Numbered from the stretch's first letter, positions 10,176 to 54,648 are shown. The stretch: 64,000 bases of DNA from an uncultured bacterium (GCA_903908715.1 CAIVSY010000041.1:11314-75313), one strand, 5' to 3'. The notes: a model not told the origin generated them from the letters alone. Program-made: numbers and translations.

Positions 10176-10376
10176 CATATCAACAGGCAGGGTACACGGG
10201 AAAACCCTTGCAACGCAAGCCACGGCCGCTGCGAAAAGCCATCGGGCTCGCGGCGGCCAACTACCACGGAGAATGAGCCGCCGCGAGCCCGATGTTCACT
10301 TCGGATAAAGGCTTTCGCACGCAACCGGTTGGCGTCCCCGCACGCTATCCGCACGGGGAGGCCATCGGTCTGCGCG

Positions 10377-12415: not shown

Positions 12416-12667
12416 TCGGTTTTTACCTTGTCAGTATGGGGTTCGTGGCCTATTGTCCTGCCCTGTCGGGCGCGAGAATAGAAGATAGGTGGCATGTTAA
12501 TAACCTGTTGATAACTCGCAATAACTCGGATCGCGGCCGGCGGGATTTGAACGGGACGAAAAAACGCCCTGAAAAAGCAGGGTGCGGGAATTTACCGATG
12601 CTCAACGTTGCGCGCGAGGATTTTTCGCGCTCTTTTTTTGGAGGCAGTTGTGATCGCAAATGATGCC

Positions 12668-14011
12668 ATGACAGTTTGGAGGCCGGCGTGCGAGCACTTG
12701 AAAAAGCTGCTCCATCCCGATGTCTACCTGCGCTGGATCGAGGTGATCGAGCCGAAGCGGCTGGAAAACGACACTCTTACGCTGGCGGTGGATAACAACT
12801 TCTACCAGACGTGGCTGGAGGAGAATTACCTGCCCCTGATCCAGACGGCCGTTGCAACCGTCTGCGGAGAAAACCTGAAGATCGTCTTCGCCGTCGGACG
12901 CAAGAGTGTTGGCTCCCCGGTTGCGGAAAAATCTGCGCCGGCGCACGTGGAGAAGCCCGTCAAGGCCGCGCCGCGCCGCACACCTTCGGATGTGATCCTG
13001 AATCCGAAGTGTACGTTCGACGAATTCATTGTCGGCGCATCGAACAACATGGCGCATGCCGCGTCTCTTGCGGTGGCGCAGTCTCCGGGCCGCGCTTATA
13101 ACCCGTTGTTCATCTACGGCGGCACCGGGCTGGGCAAGACGCACCTGATGCAGGCGATCGGACACCATGTGCTGCGCAACTCGAACGCGCGCATCTGCTA
13201 TGTCACCTCGGAAACCTTCATCAACGAGTTCATCGAAAGCATCCAGCACAATTCGTTCGTGCAGTTTCGCCGTAAGTACCGGAGCGTGGACCTGCTGTTG
13301 ATTGACGATATCCATTTCCTGACCGGCAAGGAGCGCATGCAGGAGGAGTTCTTCCATACCTTCAATGCGCTGTACGATGCCCATAAGCAGATCGTCATGA
13401 CCAGTGACCGGCCTGCCAGCGAGATCCAGGGCCTGGAGCAGCGGCTGGTTTCCCGCTTCGAGTGGGGCCTGGTCACGGAACTCCAGCAGCCGGATCTGGA
13501 GACCCGCATCGCCATCCTGCGCAACAAGCAGAAGCAGGGCGGCCTCACCCTTTCGGACGAGATCCTTTTCTTCCTGGCGAAGTCCATCCGGTCCAACATC
13601 CGACGGCTGGAAGGAGCCCTGATCCGCCTGACCTCGTATACCTCCCTGGTGAACCGGCCGGTCACACTGGCCGACGCGGAGAATCTGCTGCGCGATACCC
13701 TCGACCAGGAGAAGCAGGAGGCGTTGACCTTCGAGCAGATTATCAAGACCACCGCGGATCATTACGACTTGCGGCTTGTGGATATGACCAGCAAGCGGCG
13801 TCCGGCGGCCATCACGATGCCCCGCCAGGTGGCCATGTATCTCTGCCGGAACCTGACTCCCGCATCCCTGCCGGAAATCGCCTGCGCGTTCGGCAAAACC
13901 CACGCCACGATTCTTCATGCCTGCCGGATCGTGGAGAAGAAAATGGAAACGGATTCCAACCTGCGGCAGGATGTTTCCCACCTGTTCAAGGTGCTGGAGA
14001 AGAAAAGTTGA
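12668..14011 (+). CDS. dnaA: Chromosomal replication initiator protein DnaA
   Basis: AAA+ Walker A GGTGLGKTHL, LLIDDIHFLTGKERMQEEFFHTFNAL, C-terminal DNA-binding domain AFGKTHATILHACRIVEKK. Alternative in-frame GTG at 12650 follows GGAGG. Confidence 0.95.
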   Translation: MTVWRPACEHLKKLLHPDVYLRWIEVIEPKRLENDTLTLAVDNNFYQTWLEENYLPLIQTAVATVCGENLKIVFAVGRKSVGSPVAEKSAPAHVEKPVKAAPRRTPSDVILNPKCTFDEFIVGASNNMAHAASLAVAQSPGRAYNPLFIYGGTGLGKTHLMQAIGHHVLRNSNARICYVTSETFINEFIESIQHNSFVQFRRKYRSVDLLLIDDIHFLTGKERMQEEFFHTFNALYDAHKQIVMTSDRPASEIQGLEQRLVSRFEWGLVTELQQPDLETRIAILRNKQKQGGLTLSDEILFFLAKSIRSNIRRLEGALIRLTSYTSLVNRPVTLADAENLLRDTLDQEKQEALTFEQIIKTTADHYDLRLVDMTSKRRPAAITMPRQVAMYLCRNLTPASLPEIACAFGKTHATILHACRIVEKKMETDSNLRQDVSHLFKVLEKKS

Positions 14012-14247: not shown

Positions 14248-15342
14248 ATGAAAATCGTCATTGGCAAGGACGCGGTTTTATCTGGATTGCAGATGGTTCA
14301 TGGTGTGGTGAATGTCCGTCCCACGCTTCCCGTACTTTCGAATGTTCTTCTGCAGGCGGAAGCGGACAAGTTATGGATGACCACCACGGATTTGGAAGTC
14401 AGCGTACGCTGTCTCGTGGATGCCAAGGTTGGCAAGGCCGGCGGAACCACCCTTCCCGCACGCCGCCTGCTGGGCATTGTGCGCGAACTGCCGGTGGAGA
14501 ACATCGATATTGACGTGGACGACAAGAATAATGCCGTCATCTCCTGCGGATCCGCCTATTTCAAGATCCTGGGTTTGCCCCAGGATGATTTTCCCGCGAT
14601 TGCCGGTTACCAGGGAGGTTCAACCTTCACACTGGAACAGAGAGTGCTCAAGGATATGCTGCAGAAGACCTTCTATGCGGCATCCACCGATGAAACGCGG
14701 TTTATCCTGAACGGCACCCTCTTGAGTTTCAAGGGGAACAAGCTGACCGTGGTGGCAACGGATGGGCGGCGGCTGGCATTGGCGGAGCAGGAACTGGAAT
14801 TCCCAAAGGAATCTGAAGTGGACGCCATCATCCCGACGAAGGCTGTGAATGAAATCCTGCGTATGCTCAAGGATGAGGGAACTGTCAAGGTCCACGTCAC
14901 GAAAAACCAGGCGGGTTTTGAAGTCGAGAATATGGTGCTTACAACCAAGCTGATTGAAGGCACCTATCCGAACTTCCGCCAGGTGATACCGGCCCAGTGC
15001 GAGCATCGCATTGCGGTTGAGCGGGAGAGCCTCCTTACGGCGCTGCGGCGTGTGGCGTTGCTGACCAGCGAGAAATCGAGTTCCGTCCGTTTGACATTCG
15101 GGAAGAGCAAGCTGAAGATCAGCGCTTCATCCCCGGATGTGGGCGAGGCGCATGAATCCGTGGCGATCAAGTACAACGGCAAGGAAATGACCGTGGCGTT
15201 CAATCCTGAATACATCATGGAGCCGCTCAAGAACCTGGCGAATGACGAGATTTATGTCGAGATGACGGATGAACTGAGCCCGGGCGTGATCAAGAGTGAT
15301 GTGCCGTTCATCTATGTGCTGATGCCGATGCGGATTTCGTGA
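14248..15342 (+). CDS. dnaN: DNA polymerase III beta sliding clamp
   Basis: MKIVIGKDAVLSGLQMVHGVV...LLQAEADKLWMTTTDLEVS typical DnaN N-terminus. Roughly 364 aa across three domains. Confidence 0.93.
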   Translation: MKIVIGKDAVLSGLQMVHGVVNVRPTLPVLSNVLLQAEADKLWMTTTDLEVSVRCLVDAKVGKAGGTTLPARRLLGIVRELPVENIDIDVDDKNNAVISCGSAYFKILGLPQDDFPAIAGYQGGSTFTLEQRVLKDMLQKTFYAASTDETRFILNGTLLSFKGNKLTVVATDGRRLALAEQELEFPKESEVDAIIPTKAVNEILRMLKDEGTVKVHVTKNQAGFEVENMVLTTKLIEGTYPNFRQVIPAQCEHRIAVERESLLTALRRVALLTSEKSSSVRLTFGKSKLKISASSPDVGEAHESVAIKYNGKEMTVAFNPEYIMEPLKNLANDEIYVEMTDELSPGVIKSDVPFIYVLMPMRIS

Positions 15343-30063: not shown

Positions 30064-30423
30064 CTAGAACCGGCCGGACGACAGCAGGACAAGCGTGCAG
30101 GCTTCCAGGACAAGCATGCCGTGCCCGCGCAGGGTTGATTCCAGCTTGAGATTCTCTGCGCCGGGATTGAAGATTACGCGACCGGCTCCGCAGCGGGCCA
30201 TTTCCCCGCCGATGGCATCGGACTTGTCAGCGCCGACGTAGACCGTGATCGTATCGATCCTTTCAGGGATATCGGCGAGAGAATGATAGACAGGGAGTCC
30301 CTCGATATTTTCCAGCTCGGGATGCACGGGAAAGACCTTATGGCCTGCTTCCCGCAGGCGCATCACGGCCTTGTAGCTGTATCGTTCAGGCTGATCACTG
30401 GCGCCAATCACCGCAACATTCAT
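30064..30423 (-). CDS. CoA-binding domain protein (YccU-like)
   Basis: MNVAVIGASDQPERYSYKAV...GHKVFPVHP typical of the CoA_binding_2 family. Confidence 0.75.
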   Translation of the reverse strand: MNVAVIGASDQPERYSYKAVMRLREAGHKVFPVHPELENIEGLPVYHSLADIPERIDTITVYVGADKSDAIGGEMARCGAGRVIFNPGAENLKLESTLRGHGMLVLEACTLVLLSSGRF

Positions 30424-30814
30424 GGGGGTGCATGCTATCCGGCGCAGAGCCTGTTTTCAAGAGGGACCTTTTTGCGTGGTTTGGACTGCGGTCAAAATGC
30501 CCCATTGCGGGGCACGTGTGAGTTGCTATCATGCACCCATCATGTTGCGGCAAATCTGTTGGAAAGAACGGAATGAGGAAGGCATACGCCGCGAGATCCG
30601 CGTAACCGTTCAGCGGGGAAAAGTGCGGTGGCAGTTCAAGTCGGAGGATGAAGAGCGCTGGGAGTATGATGCCCCGCCTTCCGTGTCCGATTGGGATTCC
30701 CTCCTGGAACGCATGGAAAACCGCTATCAACGACGTAGTGTCTCGTTTGATGATCTCCTGCTGGTCCGTCGCGAACACGCGCAGGCGACCGGCAAGGGGA
30801 TTCCTGCGTAGCCC

Positions 30815-40869: not shown

Positions 40870-41025
40870 TTACGGCTTGTCCCCGTCAGGGGAGGTGGCG
40901 ATGGACGGAAGTTCCGACGTCAGGAACATCCGGATCCAGTTCAGATAGAAAGGCAGATGTCGTTCTTCGACCAGCTTGCGCTGGCGGACATATTCCACAA
41001 GCGACTGAAGATCAATTGGTTGCAT
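40870..41025 (-). pseudogene. Truncated tyrosine recombinase, integron-integrase-like N-terminal (SAM-like) fragment
   Basis: 51 aa from the Met preceded by AAGGAG. LVEYVRQRKLVEERHLPFYLNWIRMFL aligns with the IntI N-terminal block ([27 protein letters not shown]). A stop follows after about 50 aa and there is no catalytic domain. The track ORF 40870..41067 reads through the adjacent inverted repeat. Confidence 0.55.
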
Positions 41026-41043: not shown

Positions 41044-41145
41044 AACGAATAGCGTTTTATCCCACACATCCGGCGAAATCAGGTTGATCTGCCAATCATC
41101 TCGCCGTATCCTCGCCGGACATGGGATAAAACGCTATTCGTTGGC
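41044..41145. repeat. attI-like region: 31-bp-arm imperfect inverted repeat ending in the GTT|GGC junction
   Basis: AACGAATAGCGTTTTATCCCACACATCCGGCGA (35-nt spacer) TCGCCGGACATGGGATAAAACGCTATTCGTT-GGC. The GTTGGC core complements the GCCAAC R'' of the first cassette's attC. Confidence 0.5.
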
Positions 41146-41154
41146 AGACAGAAC

Positions 41155-41499
41155 ATGAGGATGACTGTAACCATAGCAGTCACGTTGATTGCGGCCCTCA
41201 CTGCGGGATGCGCGAGTCTGATTGTACACTGCTCAGAACCTCCGGAAGGGGAGCTGCATCCGAAGTACGTTTACTCCGGCACACAGGTCAGCGCGGAAGA
41301 GATCCGGCGCACCACAGACTATATGAACAGCCCGAGGTATGGATACGATGCGTTCGACCCGCTCTGGCCCTTTGCGTGGTTTCTCCTTGTTGTCGACTTC
41401 CCGCTGACCTTGGCGGCAGATACGCTCTTCTTGCCGTATGATGCATACATGGTAACAATTGGGGGAAGGGACCGGTACGGAGTGATTGAGGACAAATGA
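41155..41499 (+). CDS. Cassette 1: small lipoprotein (hypothetical)
   Basis: Lipobox LIAALTAGC. 114 aa. Starts 10 bp after the GTTGGC core. Confidence 0.55.
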   Translation: MRMTVTIAVTLIAALTAGCASLIVHCSEPPEGELHPKYVYSGTQVSAEEIRRTTDYMNSPRYGYDAFDPLWPFAWFLLVVDFPLTLAADTLFLPYDAYMVTIGGRDRYGVIEDK

Positions 41500-41502
41500 A
41501 CT

Positions 41503-41572
41503 GCCAACCACGCGTCGCTCCCTATTCGCCACCCGCGGACGGGTGGCTCAAGGGAGAGCGCGGACGTTAGGG
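41503..41572 (+). repeat. attC-like site 0 (R'' GCCAACC ... R' GTTAGGG)
   Basis: 70-bp imperfect palindrome directly after the cassette 1 stop. Shares ...CTCAAGGG...GACGTT... with the other sites. Confidence 0.55.
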
Positions 41573-41580
41573 ATCAGATT

Positions 41581-42750
41581 ATGAGAAGACCAGTCATGTG
41601 GAGAGACCCAACACACGGTGCGGCTATTCTCGCATGCACAATCATGATGTTTTGCGTTCCCGCTATTGCCGCTGACAGCAAGGGTCCGAGGGCCGACGAT
41701 CTATCGGCCCTCGGACCGCTGACAGTTGAGACCCTGGAGTTCCCCAACCTTGTGGACGTCAACCGACCTGAAAGCGATTCTGCAACTCCACGACCACGCC
41801 TCTTCCCCCGGCTGCGACGCGGCCGAGCGCAGGCAGAGAACTTGTCTACCGGGAAGGAACGGCGCATCCCGATCAAAATGCATATCCCGGCCACAGGTGG
41901 GCCGTACCCAATCATCGTTGCCTCGCACGGTGCTGGAGGTAATTGGGATACGCACTACGCACAGGCACAGCACTTGGCGTCGCATGGCTATGCTGTATTG
42001 TGCTTGGAACATGTCGGCAGCAACACCGACCGTCTGAAGAGCGGGATACGCTTGATGGACAATCTCAACAAGATGATTCGAGATGCCAATGAGGTTCTGG
42101 GGAGACCGAAAGATGTGAGTTTTGCAATCGACCGCGCCGAGGAGTGGAACACGTCGCATGAGAAATTGCGCGGGCGCCTGAATGTCAGGCATGTTGGGGT
42201 AATGGGGCATTCCTTTGGTGCTTACACCACGATGGTCATCTGCGGCATGCGGCCGGCGCTTGATTGGATGGAACCGCCCGTTGCGCCGGGCAAAGGACTT
42301 GGGCCAGATCAGAGGGACGCTCGTGTCTCCTGCGGCGTAGCGCTTTCGCCCCAAGGCGCCGACGAACCCTTCTTCATCAATGAAAGCTTTGCTACCCTGA
42401 GCGCGCCATTAATGGGCGTTTCGGGTACGGAAGACAGGCAACAGGGCGGGCTCCCACCGGCAAATCGATACAAGGCTTTCAGCCTTTGGCCCGCAAAGCA
42501 AGGGCAGCACAAGTTCGTCTGGCTGGCCAATGCCCATCATCTGGACTTTACCGACTCCACTGGCGCAAAGCAGCAGGGCATCCGTTCCGCTAACCGTGAA
42601 GATGTTCAGCCAATTGTGAGAGCAGCCACCTTGTTGTTCTTCAATACGTATCTCAAAGCTGACACTTCAGTCGCCGGAAACCTGTCCACCAACGGCCTGC
42701 AAAAGTATCTGCGGGGGGCCGTAGATGGCGTAGAGGTGAGAAGCAGATGA
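41581..42750 (+). CDS. Cassette 2: alpha/beta hydrolase (PAF-acetylhydrolase/lipase-like), secreted
   Basis: Signal peptide. GHSFGA nucleophile elbow (GxSxG). Start codon 9 bp after R', with no promoter of its own apparent. Confidence 0.7.
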   Translation: MRRPVMWRDPTHGAAILACTIMMFCVPAIAADSKGPRADDLSALGPLTVETLEFPNLVDVNRPESDSATPRPRLFPRLRRGRAQAENLSTGKERRIPIKMHIPATGGPYPIIVASHGAGGNWDTHYAQAQHLASHGYAVLCLEHVGSNTDRLKSGIRLMDNLNKMIRDANEVLGRPKDVSFAIDRAEEWNTSHEKLRGRLNVRHVGVMGHSFGAYTTMVICGMRPALDWMEPPVAPGKGLGPDQRDARVSCGVALSPQGADEPFFINESFATLSAPLMGVSGTEDRQQGGLPPANRYKAFSLWPAKQGQHKFVWLANAHHLDFTDSTGAKQQGIRSANREDVQPIVRAATLLFFNTYLKADTSVAGNLSTNGLQKYLRGAVDGVEVRSR

Positions 42751-42785
42751 CACAACAAACGGGGAAGTTCCAAACGAAATACAAT

Positions 42786-42842
42786 CCCTAACAAGGATCC
42801 GAAGGCGACGGGTAAACCCGCGCCTTAGCTCCAGCGTTCGGC
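42786..42842 (+). repeat. attC-like site a (R'' CCCTAAC ... R' GTTCGGC)
   Basis: 57 bp. R'' is the exact reverse complement of GTTAGGG at the start of cassette 2. Inner hairpin CCGAAGGCG/CGCCTT. Confidence 0.55.
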
Positions 42843-42903
42843 ATGAATTCAATCAGAAATTATAGGGCTTGATGCGTATACCGTTATCGTATACATTATA
42901 GCC

Positions 42904-43203
42904 ATGATCGAGCTGATAACCATGCCGGATTTTGAGGGGTTCGATTGGTCCGGAGGCAATGCCGAGAAGAATTGGGACAGGCATAAGGTCTCGCCACTGG
43001 AAGCGGAACAGGTGTTCTTTAATTCGCCACTTCTGGCCGGAGAAGATGCCGCACACTCTCAGCATGAGAGGCGTTTGTTTGCTCTCGGGCAGACGGATGA
43101 GGGTCGCGAATTGTTTATTGCGTTTACGGTTCGCGGTCGAAAATTGCGGATTGTGTCGGCACGGGATATGAGCCGGAAGGAACGAAAGGTTTACCAATCA
43201 TGA
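42904..43203 (+). CDS. brnT: Cassette 3: BrnT-family (DUF497) toxin
   Basis: GGNAEKNWDRHKVSPLEAEQVF matches the BrnT ribonuclease toxin family. Upstream operator with two GTATAC palindromes. Confidence 0.75.
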   Translation: MIELITMPDFEGFDWSGGNAEKNWDRHKVSPLEAEQVFFNSPLLAGEDAAHSQHERRLFALGQTDEGRELFIAFTVRGRKLRIVSARDMSRKERKVYQS

Positions 43204-43484
43204 AGAAGCAGATTCCATCATTCAAGAGTGAGGATTCCGAAAGGGAGTTTTGGGCGGATCATGATTCCACCGATTATGTTGATTGGTCCAAGGCTAAGCG
43301 GGTGGTTTTCCCGAATTTGAAGCCTTCCACCAAAACCATCTCATTGCGTCTTCCGGAATCCATTATTGCCGCACTTAAAGTCTTGGCCAACAAGCGTGAT
43401 GTGCCTTACCAGTCACTGCTTAAAGTGTTCTTGGCCGAAAAGGTCGAGGCCGAACTGCGTCATGGTCATGCCAAGACAGCATGA
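43200..43484 (+). CDS. brnA: Cassette 3: BrnA antitoxin (CopG/RHH-like)
   Basis: ATGA overlap with brnT. EREFWADHDSTDYVDWSKAKRVVFPNLKPSTKTISLRLPESI is the characteristic BrnA motif. Confidence 0.75.
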   Translation: MKKQIPSFKSEDSEREFWADHDSTDYVDWSKAKRVVFPNLKPSTKTISLRLPESIIAALKVLANKRDVPYQSLLKVFLAEKVEAELRHGHAKTA

Positions 43485-43548
43485 GCCGAACCAGCCCTCC
43501 GCGCGCGACGGCGCTCCCGCGCCGCGGTTCAAGGGCAACGTGTTCGGC
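43485..43548 (+). repeat. attC-like site b (R'' GCCGAAC ... R' GTTCGGC)
   Basis: 64 bp. R'' is the exact reverse complement of the cassette 3 start core. Shares CCAGCCCTCCG.GCGCGACG and CAAGGGCAACGT with site f. Confidence 0.6.
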
Positions 43549-43610
43549 TTCGCAAATAGTGATTGATTCAACACATAAGAATGTGTGACTGTATGTGTGG
43601 AGGAAATCGT

Positions 43611-43811
43611 ATGGCGACAAATCTACAACTCGACGATAAATTGATTAAGCAGGCTGTTACGCTTGGGGGGCACCACACCAAGAGGGCTGCGGTGACGCAG
43701 GCGCTGTCTGACTATATCCGCAATCTGCAACAGGAGAGAATTCTGGATCTGTTCGGGAAGGTTGATTTCGCCCCTGAATATGACCACAAGAGACAGCGGG
43801 CGAAAGCATGA
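43611..43811 (+). CDS. vapB: Cassette 4: VapB-family antitoxin
   Basis: Met17 after GGAGGA. 66 aa. The upstream operator is an ACACAT/ATGTGT inverted repeat. Confidence 0.7.
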   Translation: MATNLQLDDKLIKQAVTLGGHHTKRAAVTQALSDYIRNLQQERILDLFGKVDFAPEYDHKRQRAKA

Positions 43812-44269
43812 GAGTGCTCGTCGACACCAGCGTCTGGGCACTCGCGTTGCGGCGGGCTGGTCATGTTCAGAATCCGGACGCGGATGAACTGAAACGCCTG
43901 ATTACCAGTCACTTGACTGAGATCATCGGCCCCATTCGACAAGAGTTACTCTCCGGCGTCCGGGATCAGGCACAGTTTGATCTGCTGGAAGACCGTTTGG
44001 CCTGTTTCCCGGATCGTCCGCTTCATGCCGAGGACTATGTGACGGCGGCCAAAATGTTCAACCTGTGTCGCGCAAAAGGCATCCAAGGTTCAAATACAGA
44101 CTTTCTAATCTGTGCAGTTGCCGTGCGGCATGATTTTGCCATCTTCACGACAGATGATGATTTCCGCCTCTTCGCAAAGTATCTGCCCATCGTTGTATAC
44201 GAATTCAAAACACACGCCGAACCACACCTTGTTCCGTACGGCTCGCAAGCTCGCCGCCGGAAAAAGTGA
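43808..44269 (+). CDS. vapC: Cassette 4: VapC PIN-domain toxin
   Basis: ATGA overlap. MRVLVDTSVW (PIN Asp), FLICAVAVRHDFAIFTTDDDF. Confidence 0.8.
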   Translation: MRVLVDTSVWALALRRAGHVQNPDADELKRLITSHLTEIIGPIRQELLSGVRDQAQFDLLEDRLACFPDRPLHAEDYVTAAKMFNLCRAKGIQGSNTDFLICAVAVRHDFAIFTTDDDFRLFAKYLPIVVYEFKTHAEPHLVPYGSQARRRKK

Positions 44270-44278
44270 CCGTTGTGG
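44216..44278 (+). repeat. attC-like site c (R'' GCCGAAC ... R' GTTGTGG), overlaps vapC 3' end
   Basis: 63 bp. R'' is the exact reverse complement of the cassette 4 start core. Shares CGCTCGCAAGCTCGC with site e. Confidence 0.55.
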
Positions 44279-44326
44279 ATGAGAAAATGATTGATAATGT
44301 AATAACATAGTGATTACATTGCTCTC

Positions 44327-44581
44327 ATGAAGGCGACACTGATACCGATTGGCAATTCCCGAGGGGTAAGAATACCCAAACCGTTTATCGAACAATGCGG
44401 CTTGTCTGAACAAGTCGAGATTGATGTGCGGGATCACATGATCTTGATCCACTCTCCCCGCCATCCCCGTGCAGGCTGGGATAAGGCGTTCAGCCGTATG
44501 GCTCGCCTGGGTGATGATAAATTGCTGGACTCGCAGAACACCACCACGCAGTGGGATACCGAGGAGTGGCAATGGAAGTAA
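44327..44581 (+). CDS. mazE: Cassette 5: MazE/AbrB-type antitoxin
   Basis: MKATLIPIGNSRGVRIPKPF is a SpoVT/AbrB swapped-hairpin motif. Upstream GTAATAACATAGTGATTAC operator-like palindrome. Confidence 0.8.
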   Translation: MKATLIPIGNSRGVRIPKPFIEQCGLSEQVEIDVRDHMILIHSPRHPRAGWDKAFSRMARLGDDKLLDSQNTTTQWDTEEWQWK

Positions 44582-44895
44582 ACCGGTTTGATGTCTTCCT
44601 GGTCTCCCTTGATCCGACCTTGGGCCATGAGATCAAGAAGACACGGCCTTGCGTCATCATCTCGCCTGACGAGATGAACCATCACATCGGCACTGTGATT
44701 GTTGCCCCTATGACGAGCCGGGGACGCGATTATCCCACCCGGGTGAATTGCGCATTCCAGAAAGTGAGTGGTCAGGTTGTGCTGGATCAAATCCGGACCG
44801 TTGACAAGATCAGACTGGTCAAGCGACTCGGCACTCTATCTCCTGCTGTTGCCGACCAGATGTTGTCCGTTCTAATCGAAATGTTTCAGAAATGA
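44572..44895 (+). CDS. mazF: Cassette 5: MazF/PemK-family toxin
   Basis: Met8 start overlaps the mazE stop. VFLVSLDPTLGHEIKKTRPCVIIS is the MazF/PemK signature. Confidence 0.85.
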   Translation: MEVNRFDVFLVSLDPTLGHEIKKTRPCVIISPDEMNHHIGTVIVAPMTSRGRDYPTRVNCAFQKVSGQVVLDQIRTVDKIRLVKRLGTLSPAVADQMLSVLIEMFQK

Positions 44896-44954
44896 CCCCA
44901 GCCAGGCCTCGCACGCGACGGCGAGTACGTTGCGCTTGAAGGCCGCCGTTCGCG
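44896..44954 (+). repeat. attC-like site d (R'' CCCCAGC? ... R' GTTCGCG)
   Basis: 59 bp. Shares CGCACGCGACGGCG with sites b and f. Its R'' does not complement the cassette 5 start, so it is the one exception to the pattern. Confidence 0.4.
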
Positions 44955-45025
44955 AAAGAAATGGTATTGACAGCATGATCGGAGTGCTGCAACATGTACC
45001 GAAATACGTACATGAAGGAGAGTCC

Positions 45026-45286
45026 ATGACAACACTGACTGCGACCGACGCGCGCCGAGAGTTTTTCGATGTCGTTAAGGGGGCGACCGACAAGCACCAG
45101 ATTTACCGGATACACCATCGCCGGGGCTCAGTCGTCCTGCTGGCGGAGGATGACTACGACAGCATGATTGAGACCCTGGATCTGCTCTCCACGCCTGGCT
45201 TCCGCCAAAGCATGAAGAAGTCCGTGGAGCAGATGCGCAGAGGCGAGACGGTCTCGTTCGAGGAGGTCTTCGGAGAGAAACCGTGA
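45026..45286 (+). CDS. Cassette 6: Phd/YefM-family antitoxin
   Basis: Met33 start. TATDARREFFDVV...YRIHHRRGSVVLLAEDDYDSMIETLDL is typical Phd/YefM. Operator ACATGTAC...GTACATG. Confidence 0.8.
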   Translation: MTTLTATDARREFFDVVKGATDKHQIYRIHHRRGSVVLLAEDDYDSMIETLDLLSTPGFRQSMKKSVEQMRRGETVSFEEVFGEKP

Positions 45287-45540
45287 CGCCATATGCCATC
45301 CGGTTCACCAAAGAGGCCGCAAAGGACGTCGACAAACTCCCCCCTCGTCTGAAGGAGAAGCTCAAGATTGTGCTCCGGGAACAGGTGGCACCGAACCCCC
45401 GTTGCGGAAAACGGTTGGTCGGCGACCTTGCGGGATTCTTCTGCTTGAGGCTCTCCTACAAGGACCGACTGGTCTACTCGGTGGACGACGACCGCAGGAC
45501 TATCTTCGTTCACCGGGCGAGAACCCACTACGGAGACTGA
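45283..45540 (+). CDS. Cassette 6: RelE/ParE-family toxin
   Basis: ATGA overlap. 85 aa. YRLVYSVDDDRRTIFVHRARTH is a RelE/ParE C-terminal pattern. Confidence 0.75.
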   Translation: MTPYAIRFTKEAAKDVDKLPPRLKEKLKIVLREQVAPNPRCGKRLVGDLAGFFCLRLSYKDRLVYSVDDDRRTIFVHRARTHYGD

Positions 45541-45550
45541 TGACAGGGTG

Positions 45551-45684
45551 CGCGAAACACGGCGTCCAGGATACGCTCGCAAGCTCGCGCTCCTGACGCC
45601 CCGGCAATTCTGGGACAAGGAGAGGGGCCAACAAGGCGGCGGACACGCGCCGTAACCCTGGCGGGTTCACCGCCCGTGTTGGCC
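45551..45684 (+). repeat. attC-like site(s) e (R'' CGCGAAAC ... internal GGCCAAC ... R' GTTGGCC)
   Basis: 134 bp. May be one long attC, or two attCs bracketing an empty cassette. R'' complements the cassette 6 start GTTCGCG with one extra A. Confidence 0.45.
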
Positions 45685-45748
45685 CTTACAAATGAATTGA
45701 CGATATGTACAGAACTCTGTACATTACTGTACATATCGGAGATTAACT

Positions 45749-45988
45749 ATGACAACCGTGACTCTAACCGAATTCAGAAGTCATGCATCAGGAATGCTGA
45801 GCCGGGTGGAACGTGGAGAAACGCTGCTGGTGCTCAGGCATGGTCGTCCTATTGCAGAGGTGACACCCATTGCGAGTCAGAACAAAGAGCAACCTTCGTG
45901 GAAAAGACCCGGGCTTCGCCTCTCGACAAAAGGAATAAGCCTCTCGGCAACTATTCTGGCGGAGCGTGACCATGAAAGCATTCCTTGA
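45749..45988 (+). CDS. Cassette 7: Phd/YefM-family antitoxin
   Basis: MTTVTLTEFRSHASGMLSRVERGETLLVLRHGRPIAEV. The upstream operator has three TGTACA palindromes. Confidence 0.8.
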   Translation: MTTVTLTEFRSHASGMLSRVERGETLLVLRHGRPIAEVTPIASQNKEQPSWKRPGLRLSTKGISLSATILAERDHESIP

Positions 45989-46385
45989 TTCCTCCGCTTT
46001 TGCGAAGCGTTTTGTCGAAGAAAACGGGAGCGATGGCGTCGAGGTCATTTGCGCCCAGGCAACGGAACTCGGGCTGAGTGTGATCTGTGTGCCCGAGATT
46101 GTTTCCGCACTGAACCGCCGCCGCCGCGAACACACGCTGACCCGTGAGCAGTATCATGTCGCCAAAAAGCGATTGCTTGATGATGTCCGCGACGCGGACA
46201 TCATTTTCCTCACTCCGACTGTGATCGGGTCAGCCATCCTGATCCTTGAGGCAAGTCCCGTCCGAGCGATGGATGCCCTGCATGTTGCTTGTGCGCTTGA
46301 ATGGGGGGCGGAGCTGTTTGCCTCAGCCGACAAGCAGCAACTCCAGGCGGCAAGACGAGCTGGAATGAAAACCAGGCAGATATAA
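45972..46385 (+). CDS. vapC: Cassette 7: VapC PIN-domain toxin
   Basis: MKAFLDSSAF (PIN Asp) and MDALHVACALEWGAELFASAD. Start overlaps the antitoxin 3' end. Confidence 0.8.
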   Translation: MKAFLDSSAFAKRFVEENGSDGVEVICAQATELGLSVICVPEIVSALNRRRREHTLTREQYHVAKKRLLDDVRDADIIFLTPTVIGSAILILEASPVRAMDALHVACALEWGAELFASADKQQLQAARRAGMKTRQI

Positions 46386-46387
46386 AC

Positions 46388-46434
46388 GGCCACCAGCCCT
46401 CCGAGCGCGACGCCGCTCAAGGGCAACGTTGTGC
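46388..46434 (+). repeat. attC-like site f (R'' GGCCACC ... R' GTTGTGC)
   Basis: 47 bp, a shortened homologue of site b. R'' complements the cassette 7 start GTTGGCC with one mismatch. Confidence 0.5.
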
Positions 46435-46438
46435 AGGG

Positions 46439-46774
46439 ATGGAGAGAATGATGACGACCCCAAAACGATACGGAATTATCGGGGCAGTTTCAGTGACGCT
46501 CATTCTTGGATCAATGGTCGTCATCCGGACAATGCTTCCGTGCGATTCATTCATGTACGCTGCGCTTCAGAAGGTCTTCTGGGTTCCGACCATTCCCCTC
46601 TTCTGGGTCATGGAGAAAGTCATGGAGGGATGTGGCCTTCATGGGGAAGAAGGAATGAAGTACCTCCTGCCCATGTTCGCAACCATGCTGGCATACTGGG
46701 CGGCACTCGGATTCCTGATTGGGTTTGTGATTTGCAAGACGAGGGGAAGATGGAAGGGCACAACCACGGCCTGA
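46439..46774 (+). CDS. Cassette 8: small membrane protein (hypothetical)
   Basis: Met47 of ORF 46301..46774. Three predicted TM helices. No family. Confidence 0.45.
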   Translation: MERMMTTPKRYGIIGAVSVTLILGSMVVIRTMLPCDSFMYAALQKVFWVPTIPLFWVMEKVMEGCGLHGEEGMKYLLPMFATMLAYWAALGFLIGFVICKTRGRWKGTTTA

Positions 46775-46820
46775 ACCCTGCCGTTGCCCCGCGTGGACGC
46801 GGGACAACGTCTTGTTGGGC
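46758..46820 (+). repeat. attC-like site g (R'' GCACAAC ... R' GTTGGGC), overlaps ORF 3' end
   Basis: 63 bp. R'' is the exact reverse complement of the cassette 8 start GTTGTGC. Architecture parallels site c (GCCGAACCACACC vs GCACAACCACGGCC). Confidence 0.55.
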
Positions 46821-46842: not shown

Positions 46843-46986
46843 ATGAAGGCAATACGCAAACTGCTCTATTGGACGAACGTCGCGCTCCTGCTCACATGCG
46901 CGGTTGTCTTTGCATGGACACGCGTAGCGATCCTTCTGATCAAGTCGTCGGAGGGGCGGTGTATGGATTTAGCAGGCCGGGACTGA
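46843..46986 (+). CDS. Cassette 9?: 47-aa hydrophobic peptide (hypothetical)
   Basis: MKAIRKLLYWTNVALLLTCAVVFAWTRVAILLI. Single TM. No downstream attC found. Confidence 0.25.
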   Translation: MKAIRKLLYWTNVALLLTCAVVFAWTRVAILLIKSSEGRCMDLAGRD

Positions 46987-47287
46987 CGGGTGGCGGGGTT
47001 TGAGGGCGGCGTTGGCGGGATGAAGGAAGGCGGCGGGCGTGGGTTTTGGCGGAGGCGGCTCGCATCGGAGCCGGATAGGCGGGATGAGGGCGGTTAGTTA
47101 CTGTTTATTATCTGACCCCGCGTGTAAAACGGCTTTCTGATAAAACAGGCTTCTCCGCCCTCCATTCCTTCGGTGGTCTCGGCATGCCCCGTAATCACAA
47201 AACCACCCTGCCGGATCATGTGATTCATCCTTGATTCAGTCAGGGCCTTGCGTATGATTCTTCATGGAAACAAAAAGGAGTTTTCCC

Positions 47288-53437: not shown

Positions 53438-54648
53438 AACAAGAGGGCCAGTGTATGCACACAGGAACCCTCTGCGCCCGCGAGTACCGTACCGGCAAGG
53501 GGATTCAAGTGGCCTGGCAGTCCGGTGCCGTGACGTGTGTCGAGCCGGCCGAGGTGACGGAGGATATCTGGATCGCCCCGGGCTTGACGGATCTCCAGGT
53601 GAACGGGTATGGCGGGGTCGATTTCCAGGATTCCGCGCTGACGCTGGAGTCCCTGCGAAAGGCCGTTCGGGCCCTGCAGCGGGACGGCTGCTTCCAGTTT
53701 TTCCCGACACTGATAACCGATGACTGGTCTGCCATGATTGCCCGGTTACGCCGCATCCGGGGCTTTCGTGAACAATGTCCCGAACTGCAGGCCGCCATTG
53801 CGGGATGGCATCTCGAGGGGCCCTTTCTTTCGCCGGTTCCCGGGTATTGCGGCGCCCATCCGAAGGAAAAAATGATTCGGCCGACACCGGGCCACATCCG
53901 GGAACTGCGCGAAGCGACAGGAAACGATCCGGTCCTGCTGACGGTGGCACCGGAGCAGGAAGGGGTTCTGGAGGTCCTGCCGCTTGCCGCATCGCTGGGG
54001 ATCCGCATCAGTCTCGGGCATTCCAACGCATCCGCCGCGCAACTCGCGGCAGCCGTGCGCGGGGGCGCTGTTTCCTTCACGCACCTCGGGAACGGCTGCC
54101 CGCAGGCCCTTGACCGGCATGACAACATTCTCTGGCGGGTCATCGGGTCGGAGGCACTTCATCCCGGTTTGATTCCCGACAGTATTCATATCTCACCGGC
54201 ACTTTTCCGGATCCTGCATCGAGCCATGGATCCTGCGCGTTTCTGGTACACAACGGACGCCGTACACCCTGCCGGCGCCCCCTGCGGGCGGTACCGGATC
54301 CTGGGCGGGACAGAGGTTGAGGTGGGCCCGGATCAGGTGGTTCGTGTGCCCGGGGCGGCCAACTTTGCCGGATCGGCATTGCGTCCGCTGGAGGGCATTT
54401 TCCGTGCCGCGGAAATGCTGGGCTGTTCGTGGCGGGAGGTTTGGGACCGCTTTACGCTGCAACCGCGTCACTGGATGGGAATGAAAGACGCTGCGATCGT
54501 CCCCGGCGGTGCGGCGAGTTTCTGTATCCTGGATTTCCGGAAATCCGGTCAGCCTGTTGTTGAAACGTACATACAGGGCGAGAAGCGTTCCTCGCTTCCC
54601 GCGAAGGCTTGGATGGGCGGGGCCGGGATTCCCGACGAACGGTCATGA
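53434..54648 (+). CDS. nagA: N-acetylglucosamine-6-phosphate deacetylase
   Basis: QVNGYGGVDF, HLEGPFLSP, SLGHSNA and THLGNG metal/active-site motifs. ATGA overlap with the upstream gene. Confidence 0.85.
   Translation: MKQEGQCMHTGTLCAREYRTGKGIQVAWQSGAVTCVEPAEVTEDIWIAPGLTDLQVNGYGGVDFQDSALTLESLRKAVRALQRDGCFQFFPTLITDDWSAMIARLRRIRGFREQCPELQAAIAGWHLEGPFLSPVPGYCGAHPKEKMIRPTPGHIRELREATGNDPVLLTVAPEQEGVLEVLPLAASLGIRISLGHSNASAAQLAAAVRGGAVSFTHLGNGCPQALDRHDNILWRVIGSEALHPGLIPDSIHISPALFRILHRAMDPARFWYTTDAVHPAGAPCGRYRILGGTEVEVGPDQVVRVPGAANFAGSALRPLEGIFRAAEMLGCSWREVWDRFTLQPRHWMGMKDAAIVPGGAASFCILDFRKSGQPVVETYIQGEKRSSLPAKAWMGGAGIPDERS

Follow-up and report, generated by a model that had tools for sequence, protein, structure and literature searches.

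Large chromosomal integrons are enriched in toxin-antitoxin (TA) genes, and TA cassettes with a promoter of their own form a recognised special class (PMC13108822; PMC11023631). In Vibrio cholerae, 19 such own-promoter TA cassettes kill cells when cassette excision becomes too frequent (Richard et al. 2024, PMC13108822; PMC11023631). Integrase-less attC clusters (CALIN) are common as well, and few of them keep an intI pseudogene (detectable in 15/279; Cury et al. 2016, PMC4889954). Here, we study a 64,000-nt stretch of DNA from an uncultured bacterium (GCA_903908715.1 CAIVSY010000041.1:11314-75313; positions are counted from its first letter), referred to as the window. Between positions 42904 and 46385 it holds ten small, co-oriented open reading frames (ORFs) on the + strand that form five adjacent pairs. 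We consider it very likely that these are five TA operons, each a separate cassette (3-7 of nine) of a chromosomal integron whose intI is reduced to a 51-codon stub, and that they act as addiction modules in an array that is fixed in place. Such an arrangement has been described before, in Vibrio and in other bacteria; the locus is a new example of it in an unusual, putative PVC-group host and in an array without its integrase.

Like the V. cholerae superintegron, the locus has one type II TA operon per cassette, each with its own attC and its own putative promoter, along with co-resident cassettes that lack a promoter and have no known function, attC bottom strands lying on the template of the leading strand, plus a proposed protection of the array by killing after cassette loss. 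It differs in size (nine cassettes vs. 179), in having no working integrase nearby, in the far higher share and the arrangement of its TA cassettes (5/9 and contiguous vs. 19/179 and dispersed), in its putative PVC-group host (vs. a gammaproteobacterium) and in its position about 27 kb from oriC. With CALIN (PMC4889954; IntegronFinder 2.0) it shares at least two same-strand attC sites with under 4 kb between them, the lack of a profile-detectable intI, cassettes unrelated to those of resistance integrons, and a size near the typical one (mean 5 attC). Unlike them, it keeps an intI remnant, of the N-terminal extension only, which the published CALIN pseudogene screen would miss because that screen uses C-terminal IntI and PF00589 profiles. 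The TA clusters of Mycobacterium tuberculosis (VapBC, MazEF, RelBE) likewise combine several type II families per genome in antitoxin-first operons with short overlaps and palindromic operators; in contrast to these, the modules studied here are physically tandem and each is bounded by attC sites.

The ten ORFs were assigned by profile searches (Pfam, NCBIfam) as follows.

42904-43203, + strand: brnT, toxin, cassette 3 (PF04365, 2.5e-21, 76 bits, cut-off 34.5)
43200-43484, + strand: brnA, CopG/RHH antitoxin (PF12441, 4.9e-34, 117 bits, cut-off 28; NF047399, 3.9e-15)
43611-43811, + strand: vapB, antitoxin, cassette 4 (PF09957, 5.7e-16)
43808-44269, + strand: first vapC, PIN toxin (NF047959, 5.1e-25, 88 bits, cut-off 80; PIN, 7.3e-8)
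44327-44581, + strand: mazE-type antitoxin of AbrB/SpoVT fold, cassette 5, adjoining mazF (PF04014, 4.4e-5)
44572-44895, + strand: mazF/pemK, toxin (PF02452, 3e-31, 108 bits, cut-off 23.1)
45026-45286, + strand: first phd/yefM, antitoxin, cassette 6 (PF02604, 1.9e-11, 44 bits, cut-off 29.8)
45283-45540, + strand: RelE/ParE-superfamily toxin, RelE/YoeB-type (PF15781, 1.2e-7, 32.1 bits, cut-off 28; TIGR02116, 4.6e-7)
45749-45988, + strand: second phd, antitoxin, cassette 7 (PF02604, 1.1e-8; TIGR01552, 8e-7)
45972-46385, + strand: second vapC, PIN toxin (PF01850, 4e-8; PIN, 34.3 bits, cut-off 23.6)

All ten ORFs are thus placed in the families named by an earlier sequence-only reading of the locus, with MazE just under the threshold (23.8 bits vs. 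a Pfam cut-off of 24.7; a PDB match to an AbrB/MazE/SpoVT protein has an E-value of 0.024). The pairs fit type II TA systems in gene content and order, i.e., BrnT/BrnA, VapBC (two copies), MazEF and Phd/YefM-RelE/YoeB. That reading had also counted five different toxin folds, which has to be corrected to four toxin families since PIN is used twice; BrnT and RelE, moreover, have a common RelE-like fold. Its claim of a 4-bp overlap in each pair is right for 3/5 pairs, namely BrnT/BrnA (toxin-first order, ATGA), VapB/VapC (ATGA) and the first Phd with its toxin (GTGA, the toxin having a GTG start), and wrong for MazE/MazF (10 bp) and the second Phd/VapC (17 bp). The nearest solved relatives of the toxin at 45283-45540 are RelE-like (PDB; Rv2866 5.9e-9, RelE 3.3e-5, YoeB 5.7e-4); it belongs to the RelE/ParE superfamily, with RelE, YoeB and ParE all candidate subfamilies. 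The starts of VapB (43611), MazF (44572), the first Phd (45026) and the second VapC (45972) are internal to the respective longest ORFs, and the acidic residues of the PIN toxins were seen by eye in unaligned sequences.

The cassette structure of the locus was studied via GC-rich stretches that follow stop codons and fold into hairpins opening with AAC and closing with GTT. We built a covariance model (CM) from 14 attC sites of other loci only (L114 and L210, two metagenome arrays described below), which avoids circularity, and ran it over both strands of the whole window with filters off. The 14 foreign sites align end to end, with a terminal AAC/GTT R-box stem, an asymmetric unpaired spacer of 2/3 nt and a bulged L stem. 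Their consensus, which has the bulge on the 5' arm and compensatory changes at 12/16 pairs, is that of the attC architecture, in which structure and not sequence is conserved and the loop varies. Exactly seven matches have an E-value below 0.01. All are on the + strand within 41.5-46.4 kb, each immediately follows a gene or gene pair on its 3' side, and together they bound every TA pair at a spacing of 0.66-1.28 kb, such that the locus is an array in the sense of at least two same-strand attC sites less than 4 kb apart. Outside of 41.5-46.8 kb, no match on either strand of the 64 kb is better than an E-value of 0.3. In total, seven firm and two weak sites are found.

41502-41572, + strand: attC A1 (40.4 bits, E 2.8e-7), R'' TGCCAAC, 7/7 against the previous R'
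42786-42842, + strand: attC A2 (27.5 bits, E 2.4e-4), R'' CCCTAAC, 7/7 against the previous R' GTTAGGG
43485-43548, + strand: attC A3 (35.4 bits, E 3.8e-6), R'' GCCGAAC, 7/7
44216-44278, + strand: attC A3b, between the VapBC and MazEF cassettes, best CM match in the window (55.5 bits, E 1e-10)
44896-44954, + strand: attC A4 (40.5 bits, E 2.6e-7)
45551-45614, + strand: A5, degenerate attC-like hairpin, partial match at 45561-45600 covering the L stem only (15.5 bits, E 0.13)
45626-45684, + strand: attC A6 (20.5 bits, E 0.0095), R''/R' GGCCAAC/GTTGGCC
46388-46434, + strand: attC A7, short (47 nt; 22.3 bits, E 0.0036), R'' 6/7 against the previous R'
46758-46820, + strand: attC A8, weak (11.2 bits, E 1.2), strong hairpin, R'' GCACAAC, 7/7 against the previous R' GTTGTGC

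A3 has single-base bulges, C and A, on the 5' arm of the top strand. Over 60 nt, 88% of its positions agree with the attC site that belongs to the HicBA cassette of L114, and A7 has a stretch of 28 nt that is identical to this L114 site. The R'' of A3b (GCCGAAC, read from the sequence) complements the previous R' GTTCGGC at 7/7 positions, and the site overlaps the 3' end of vapC. That is, A3b encodes the end of the first VapC (…PNHTLFRTARKLAAGKSDR; ~18 codons, 44216-44269), and the attC-encoded tail makes the toxin's C-terminus longer than in typical PIN toxins. A single cassette shared by VapBC and MazEF is ruled out by A3b, which lies between them. The Phd-RelE cassette ends in the degenerate hairpin A5, followed 11 nt on by the complete attC A6.

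Two other ways to delimit the sites were dropped. A hand-written R-box/L-box scan was too permissive (28 and 24 matches across the window) and missed true bulged sites, and the attC sites of the window itself, aligned by MAFFT, gave a structurally incoherent result from which no model was built. When AAC...GTT-bounded segments are ranked by constrained DNA folding energy, six array sites are among the top ~11, which is supportive and unspecific. Long stable AAC...GTT-bounded hairpins are also seen off the array at 10203-10330, 30411-30550 and 54025-54072 (e.g., 128 nt at -41.5 kcal/mol, or the 140-nt inverted repeat at 30.4 kb); these three match neither Rfam nor the attC model.

A mark of circularly permuted cassettes is that the R'' of an attC site complements the TTNNNN that opens its own cassette, i.e., the R' of the preceding site. 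This boundary rule is obeyed at 7/7 positions at five junctions (A0>A1, A1>A2, A2>A3, A3>A3b and A7>A8, where A0 is the hairpin ahead of the first cassette), at 6/7 for A6>A7 and A4>A5 (the latter 7/7 with one extra A in the R'' of A5) and at 5/7 for A3b>A4, and it fails at A5>A6. In A1, A2, A7 and A8, R'' fits the neighbouring R' of its own site less well (4-6/7). The rule is also obeyed in L114 and L210. A cassette opens with TT(N4) on the left and closes with its own attC hairpin, which gives the following array.

41141-41566: cassette 1, gene at 41155-41499 (+ strand), DUF1375/YceK-like lipoprotein (PF07119, 2.4e-11)
41567-42836: cassette 2, gene at 41581-42750 (+ strand), alpha/beta hydrolase, PAF-acetylhydrolase-like (PF03403, 1.7e-10)
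42837-43542: cassette 3, BrnTA
43543-44272: cassette 4, VapBC
44273-44948: cassette 5, MazEF
44949-45678: cassette 6, Phd-RelE
45679-46428: cassette 7, Phd-VapC
46429-46814: cassette 8, gene at 46439-46774 (+ strand), small membrane protein
from 46815: cassette 9, the last cassette-like unit, ORF at 46843-46986 (+ strand), 47 aa with a hydrophobic stretch

By eye, the hydrolase of cassette 2 looks secreted. The gene of cassette 8 has no match in Pfam or NCBIfam.

Two elements to the left of cassette 1 occupy the places of an integrase gene and of its attI site.

40870-41025, - strand: N-terminal stub of intI, 51 codons, divergent from the cassettes
41044-41142, + strand: hairpin A0, 99 nt, at the attI position, with a perfect outer stem of 21 bp and an inner stem of 8 bp

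The 51-aa stub alone has no match in Pfam, NCBIfam or PDB, and a word-indexed protein search returned only the stub itself. An exhaustive HMMER search of 1.84 billion proteins resulted in 34 proteins with E<=1e-3 (the query's own sequence included), nearly all of which align their own residues 1-47 to the stub with 35-58% identity. Exceptions are P0002 and P0013, which are long repeat proteins with internal matches, and P0034, which is also matched internally (residues 43-78). The longer relatives P0003, P0008, P0009 and P0011 match TIGR02249 ('integron integrase') at 4e-44 to 8e-69, and residues 1-47 of the stub are 41-58% identical to the N-termini of TIGR02249-matching proteins. Since the TIGR02249 core starts at residue 104-108 in P0003, P0009 and P0011, the integrase lineage of the stub has an N-terminal extension of ~100 residues, of which the window keeps the first half only. 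The remainder of intI is deleted, since the gene of UDP-glucose dehydrogenase begins 148 bp past the stop of the stub. The extension (YVKWVxRF...WQxRQALRAxELY) looks as if the first helices of the integrase N-terminal (SAM-like) domain were present a second time. Damage is also seen in several relatives of the stub: P0003 is cut by an IS200/IS605-type transposase gene (in L209), and P0008 and P0009 are without internal parts of the core.

Cassette 1 has its left boundary at the 3' end of A0, G|TT (41140), and the GTTGGCAG found there is the exact complement of the R'' of A1. A0 fills the 115-bp interval between stub and first cassette, in which the promoter scan described below gave no Pc-like match and which has only short motifs in common with the same interval in the relatives. 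Complete integrons are defined by an intact adjacent intI with the IntI-specific domain, of which 51 codons are left here, and sedentary chromosomal integrons by more than 10 attC sites plus an integrase (PMC13108822), compared to seven firm and two weak sites and no integrase in our case. The integron origin proposed by the sequence-only reading is supported; within the window the platform is defunct, with a stub of intI only.

The orientation of the array was assessed relative to the origin of replication. The window contains dnaA (12608-14011, + strand) and dnaN (14248-15342, + strand), and the GC skew turns from negative to positive at ~12-20 kb, which places oriC at ~12-20 kb and the array ~27 kb into the right replichore. 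Therefore, the fork travels through the array genes in their direction of transcription, and the attC bottom strands are part of the template for the leading strand. The same orientation is seen in 25/30 sedentary chromosomal integrons and lowers excision in experiments (PMC5371416).

Contigs of several metagenome assemblies carry the array at 99.6-100% identity. Its cassette order is identical in 11 contigs, and no recovered contig across the TA block departs from it. Some contigs stop where A0 or A1 has its edge, namely at 41136 and 41141 (two independent contigs), 41499/41511 and 41578, and a further independent one (L006) stops at 46991. The ends at the A0/A1 edges may reflect variation at the integrase-proximal end or assembly effects only. 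In some population contigs (samples ERZ1426837 and ERZ1426820), BrnT, VapB or the second Phd is uncalled at the expected place, which could be strain-level TA decay or a mere difference in gene calling.

Regions upstream of the five TA pairs were searched for palindromes, whose significance was assessed by 2000 shuffles of each pair's own upstream region, and scanned for promoters with a sigma-70-like consensus.

42869-42897, + strand: promoter-like site of brnTA, TTGATG-17-TACATT, overlapping two GTATAC palindromes (42876, 42889)
43571-43598, + strand: inverted repeat ACACAT(A)/(T)ATGTGT upstream of vapB
44291-44320, + strand: promoter-like site of mazEF, TTGATA-18-TACATT, overlapping the inverted repeat AATGTAAT/ATTACATT (44296-44320; 8-nt arms) upstream of mazE
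44967-45014, + strand: promoter-like site of phd-relE, TTGACA-17-CAACAT, with the inverted repeat CATGTAC/GTACATG (44992-45014)
45697-45738, + strand: promoter-like site of phd-vapC, TTGACG-17-TACATT, overlapping three TGTACA palindromes and the inverted repeat CGATATGTACAG/CTGTACATATCG (12-nt arms) upstream of the second phd (palindromic region 45701-45738)

The inverted repeats or repeated palindromes have p-values of ~0.025, 0.035, 0.017, 0.02 and <0.001 in the order brnTA, vapBC, mazEF, phd-relE and phd-vapC. Of only four GTATAC copies in 64 kb, two are 13 bp apart directly before brnT, and three of the ten TGTACA copies are found within 28 bp ahead of the second phd. The palindromes coincide with promoter-like hexamer pairs in 4/5 TA cassettes, and the -10-like TACATT is shared by three unrelated ones (42892-42897, 44315-44320, 45720-45725). 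Since it ends 6 nt ahead of the ATG of both brnT and mazE, where no Shine-Dalgarno sequence is present, leaderless mRNAs are predicted for these two. The earlier claim that each pair is preceded by an inverted-repeat operator of its own agrees with these observations: all five palindromes are in place, two of them bigger than claimed, and may function as operators.

Relatives of the array were identified in metagenomes. A scan with the attC core CAGCCCTCCGNGCGCGACG gave at least 120 loci, nearly all of which are chance matches in GC-rich coding DNA; L114 (Ga0194057_10003221, minus strand) is the only true relative of A3/A7 among them. At least 13 attC sites, some of them read by eye because automatic chain-following had skipped them, make up this array. 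One of its ends is a tandem of BrnTA, HicBA and ParD-like/ParE cassettes, after which come cassettes rich in lipoprotein genes and others. The contigs that encode the stub's relatives (L208-L211) show divergent cassette arrays, with three clear chain-linked attC sites in L210. L114 and the integrase-bearing L210 have a non-TA cassette of 443 bp in common (84% nt identity). The attC type, a shared cassette and the integrase N-terminus thus connect the window, L114 and L210. The sequence-only reading had also suggested that the pairs were acquired independently as cassettes and stabilise an integron or genomic island. Integron cassettes that were acquired independently are supported by attC sites around every TA pair, the boundary rule, the intI remnant and the window's attC type being attached to a different TA cassette (HicBA) in L114, and a stabilising role is plausible.

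In the mechanism that we propose, each TA cassette would be transcribed from its own promoter-like element, unlike ordinary cassettes, and the antitoxin or the TA complex would bind the cassette-specific palindrome and repress its own transcription. Because the loss of a TA cassette would free the stable toxin from its labile antitoxin, the TA cassettes would act as addiction modules that penalise the excision or deletion of themselves and of segments holding them. By analogy, such self-promoted modules would most likely guard the array against deletion. Since the integrase has been lost and the attC bottom strands belong to the leading-strand template, the array would be fixed in place and is probably immobile as long as no integrase acts on it in trans. 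Once non-addictive neighbours can be lost freely, TA cassettes would be expected to survive as a run. A possible, if doubtful, extension is that the locus is a 'fossil' integron in which addiction outlived recombination: after the loss of intI, non-addictive cassettes would have been deleted and those lethal to lose left packed together. This would explain both the 5/9 TA cassettes found here and the tandem block of three in L114.

Several points weigh against addiction modules in a fixed integron array. A tblastn search of the window with an IntI1 query detected no integrase or recombinase core; the same query matches the relatives' intI genes at 42-45% identity. The window has no working integrase, so present-day recombination is unsupported there, and an intact intI may be located elsewhere in the source genome, outside the 64 kb. 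A0 is unrecognised by the attC model and is an atypical filler of the attI position. Two sites are poor: A5 lacks a GTT R' while its R'' CGCGAAAC obeys the chain rule, and A8 reaches only 11.2 bits. The R'' of A4 (CCCCAGC) is degenerate with 5/7 against the expected CCACAAC. No attC follows the last unit. For vapB, the promoter scan gave no clear sigma-70-like match, and the consensus used may not be that of the host phylum. Finally, the stabilising role is carried over from experiments in Vibrio.

The array might still be a working reservoir, whose cassettes are moved in trans by an intact integrase encoded elsewhere or on a mobile integron, with the TA modules keeping the excision rate down as 'cassette-loss killers'. 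Only the activity of the array sets this apart from our preferred explanation. It would fit the seven attC sites that keep complete R boxes, spacer and bulges, and about half of the integrase-less attC clusters indeed sit in replicons that encode IntI elsewhere, such that mobilisation in trans is possible (PMC4889954). The assembly breaks at the A0/A1 edges could be attI-proximal polymorphism, but could also be coverage or assembly effects; and the integrase missing from 64 kb, the cassette order preserved in every recovered contig spanning the TA block and the degenerate A4, A5 and A8 speak for an inactive array. We regard an active reservoir as unlikely.

Type II TA systems of the families found here have been linked to phage defence. 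The locus could be an anti-phage defence island whose toxins are released upon infection (abortive infection), with the integron as arrival route only. We consider this improbable: chromosomal integron cassettes are described as often encoding defence systems (bioRxiv 10.1101/2024.07.02.601686), but nothing in the window links the modules to phage, and general profile searches, none of them aimed at defence systems, gave no known defence genes among the neighbouring cassettes. An ordinary TA-rich genomic island without integron origin, in which the GC-rich hairpins are terminators or REP-like (repetitive extragenic palindromic) repeats, deserves next to no credence. The hairpins do follow stop codons as terminators would, and no integrase is present. 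However, they have no T-tails, and a terminator scan shows no enrichment (6 found vs. 6.6 expected). This explanation is already contradicted by the hairpins' match to a model trained on foreign attC sites, by their obeying the cassette boundary rule, and by the intI stub at the correct end and in the correct orientation.

With regard to the surroundings of the integron array, its GC content of 0.52-0.57 compares to ~0.62 in the flanks. The nearest relatives of the flanking UDP-glucose dehydrogenase are from metagenome-assembled genomes (MAGs) at 82-83% aa identity, one labelled 'PVC group bacterium' and two 'bacterium', and the host is probably an uncultured PVC-group bacterium. A synteny search of the MAGs matched by this enzyme revealed no related array at the orthologous site. 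A tyrosine recombinase is found just upstream of the orthologous UDP-glucose dehydrogenase gene in a Victivallales MAG (L074, 7329-9345). It was rejected as an integron integrase since it is paired, by eye, with an IS91-type transposase, and it represents another mobile element in the same chromosomal neighbourhood. At the right edge, the last cassette-like unit abuts a response-regulator gene fragment (47094-47228, - strand), a 44-aa ORF that resembles an internal piece of a receiver domain (FVITGH...FIRKPF; weak FixJ match at positions 80-108, E 0.25). The fragment may be the scar of an event, insertion or deletion, by which the locus took its shape.

TA cassettes are thought to let chromosomal integrons keep large stocks of silent genes, and nearly all evidence for this comes from Vibrio. 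The locus does not overturn the current understanding; it provides a natural example of what remains after the recombination machinery is lost. A CM built from a handful of related attC sites was sufficient to find the cassette boundaries cleanly, and an intI remnant that consists of the N-terminal extension only is invisible to the usual pseudogene screens. Should the 'fossil' pattern hold generally, a high density of TA cassettes in an attC cluster would be the sign of a dead integron, and what such remnants contain in the long term would be set by their TA cassettes.

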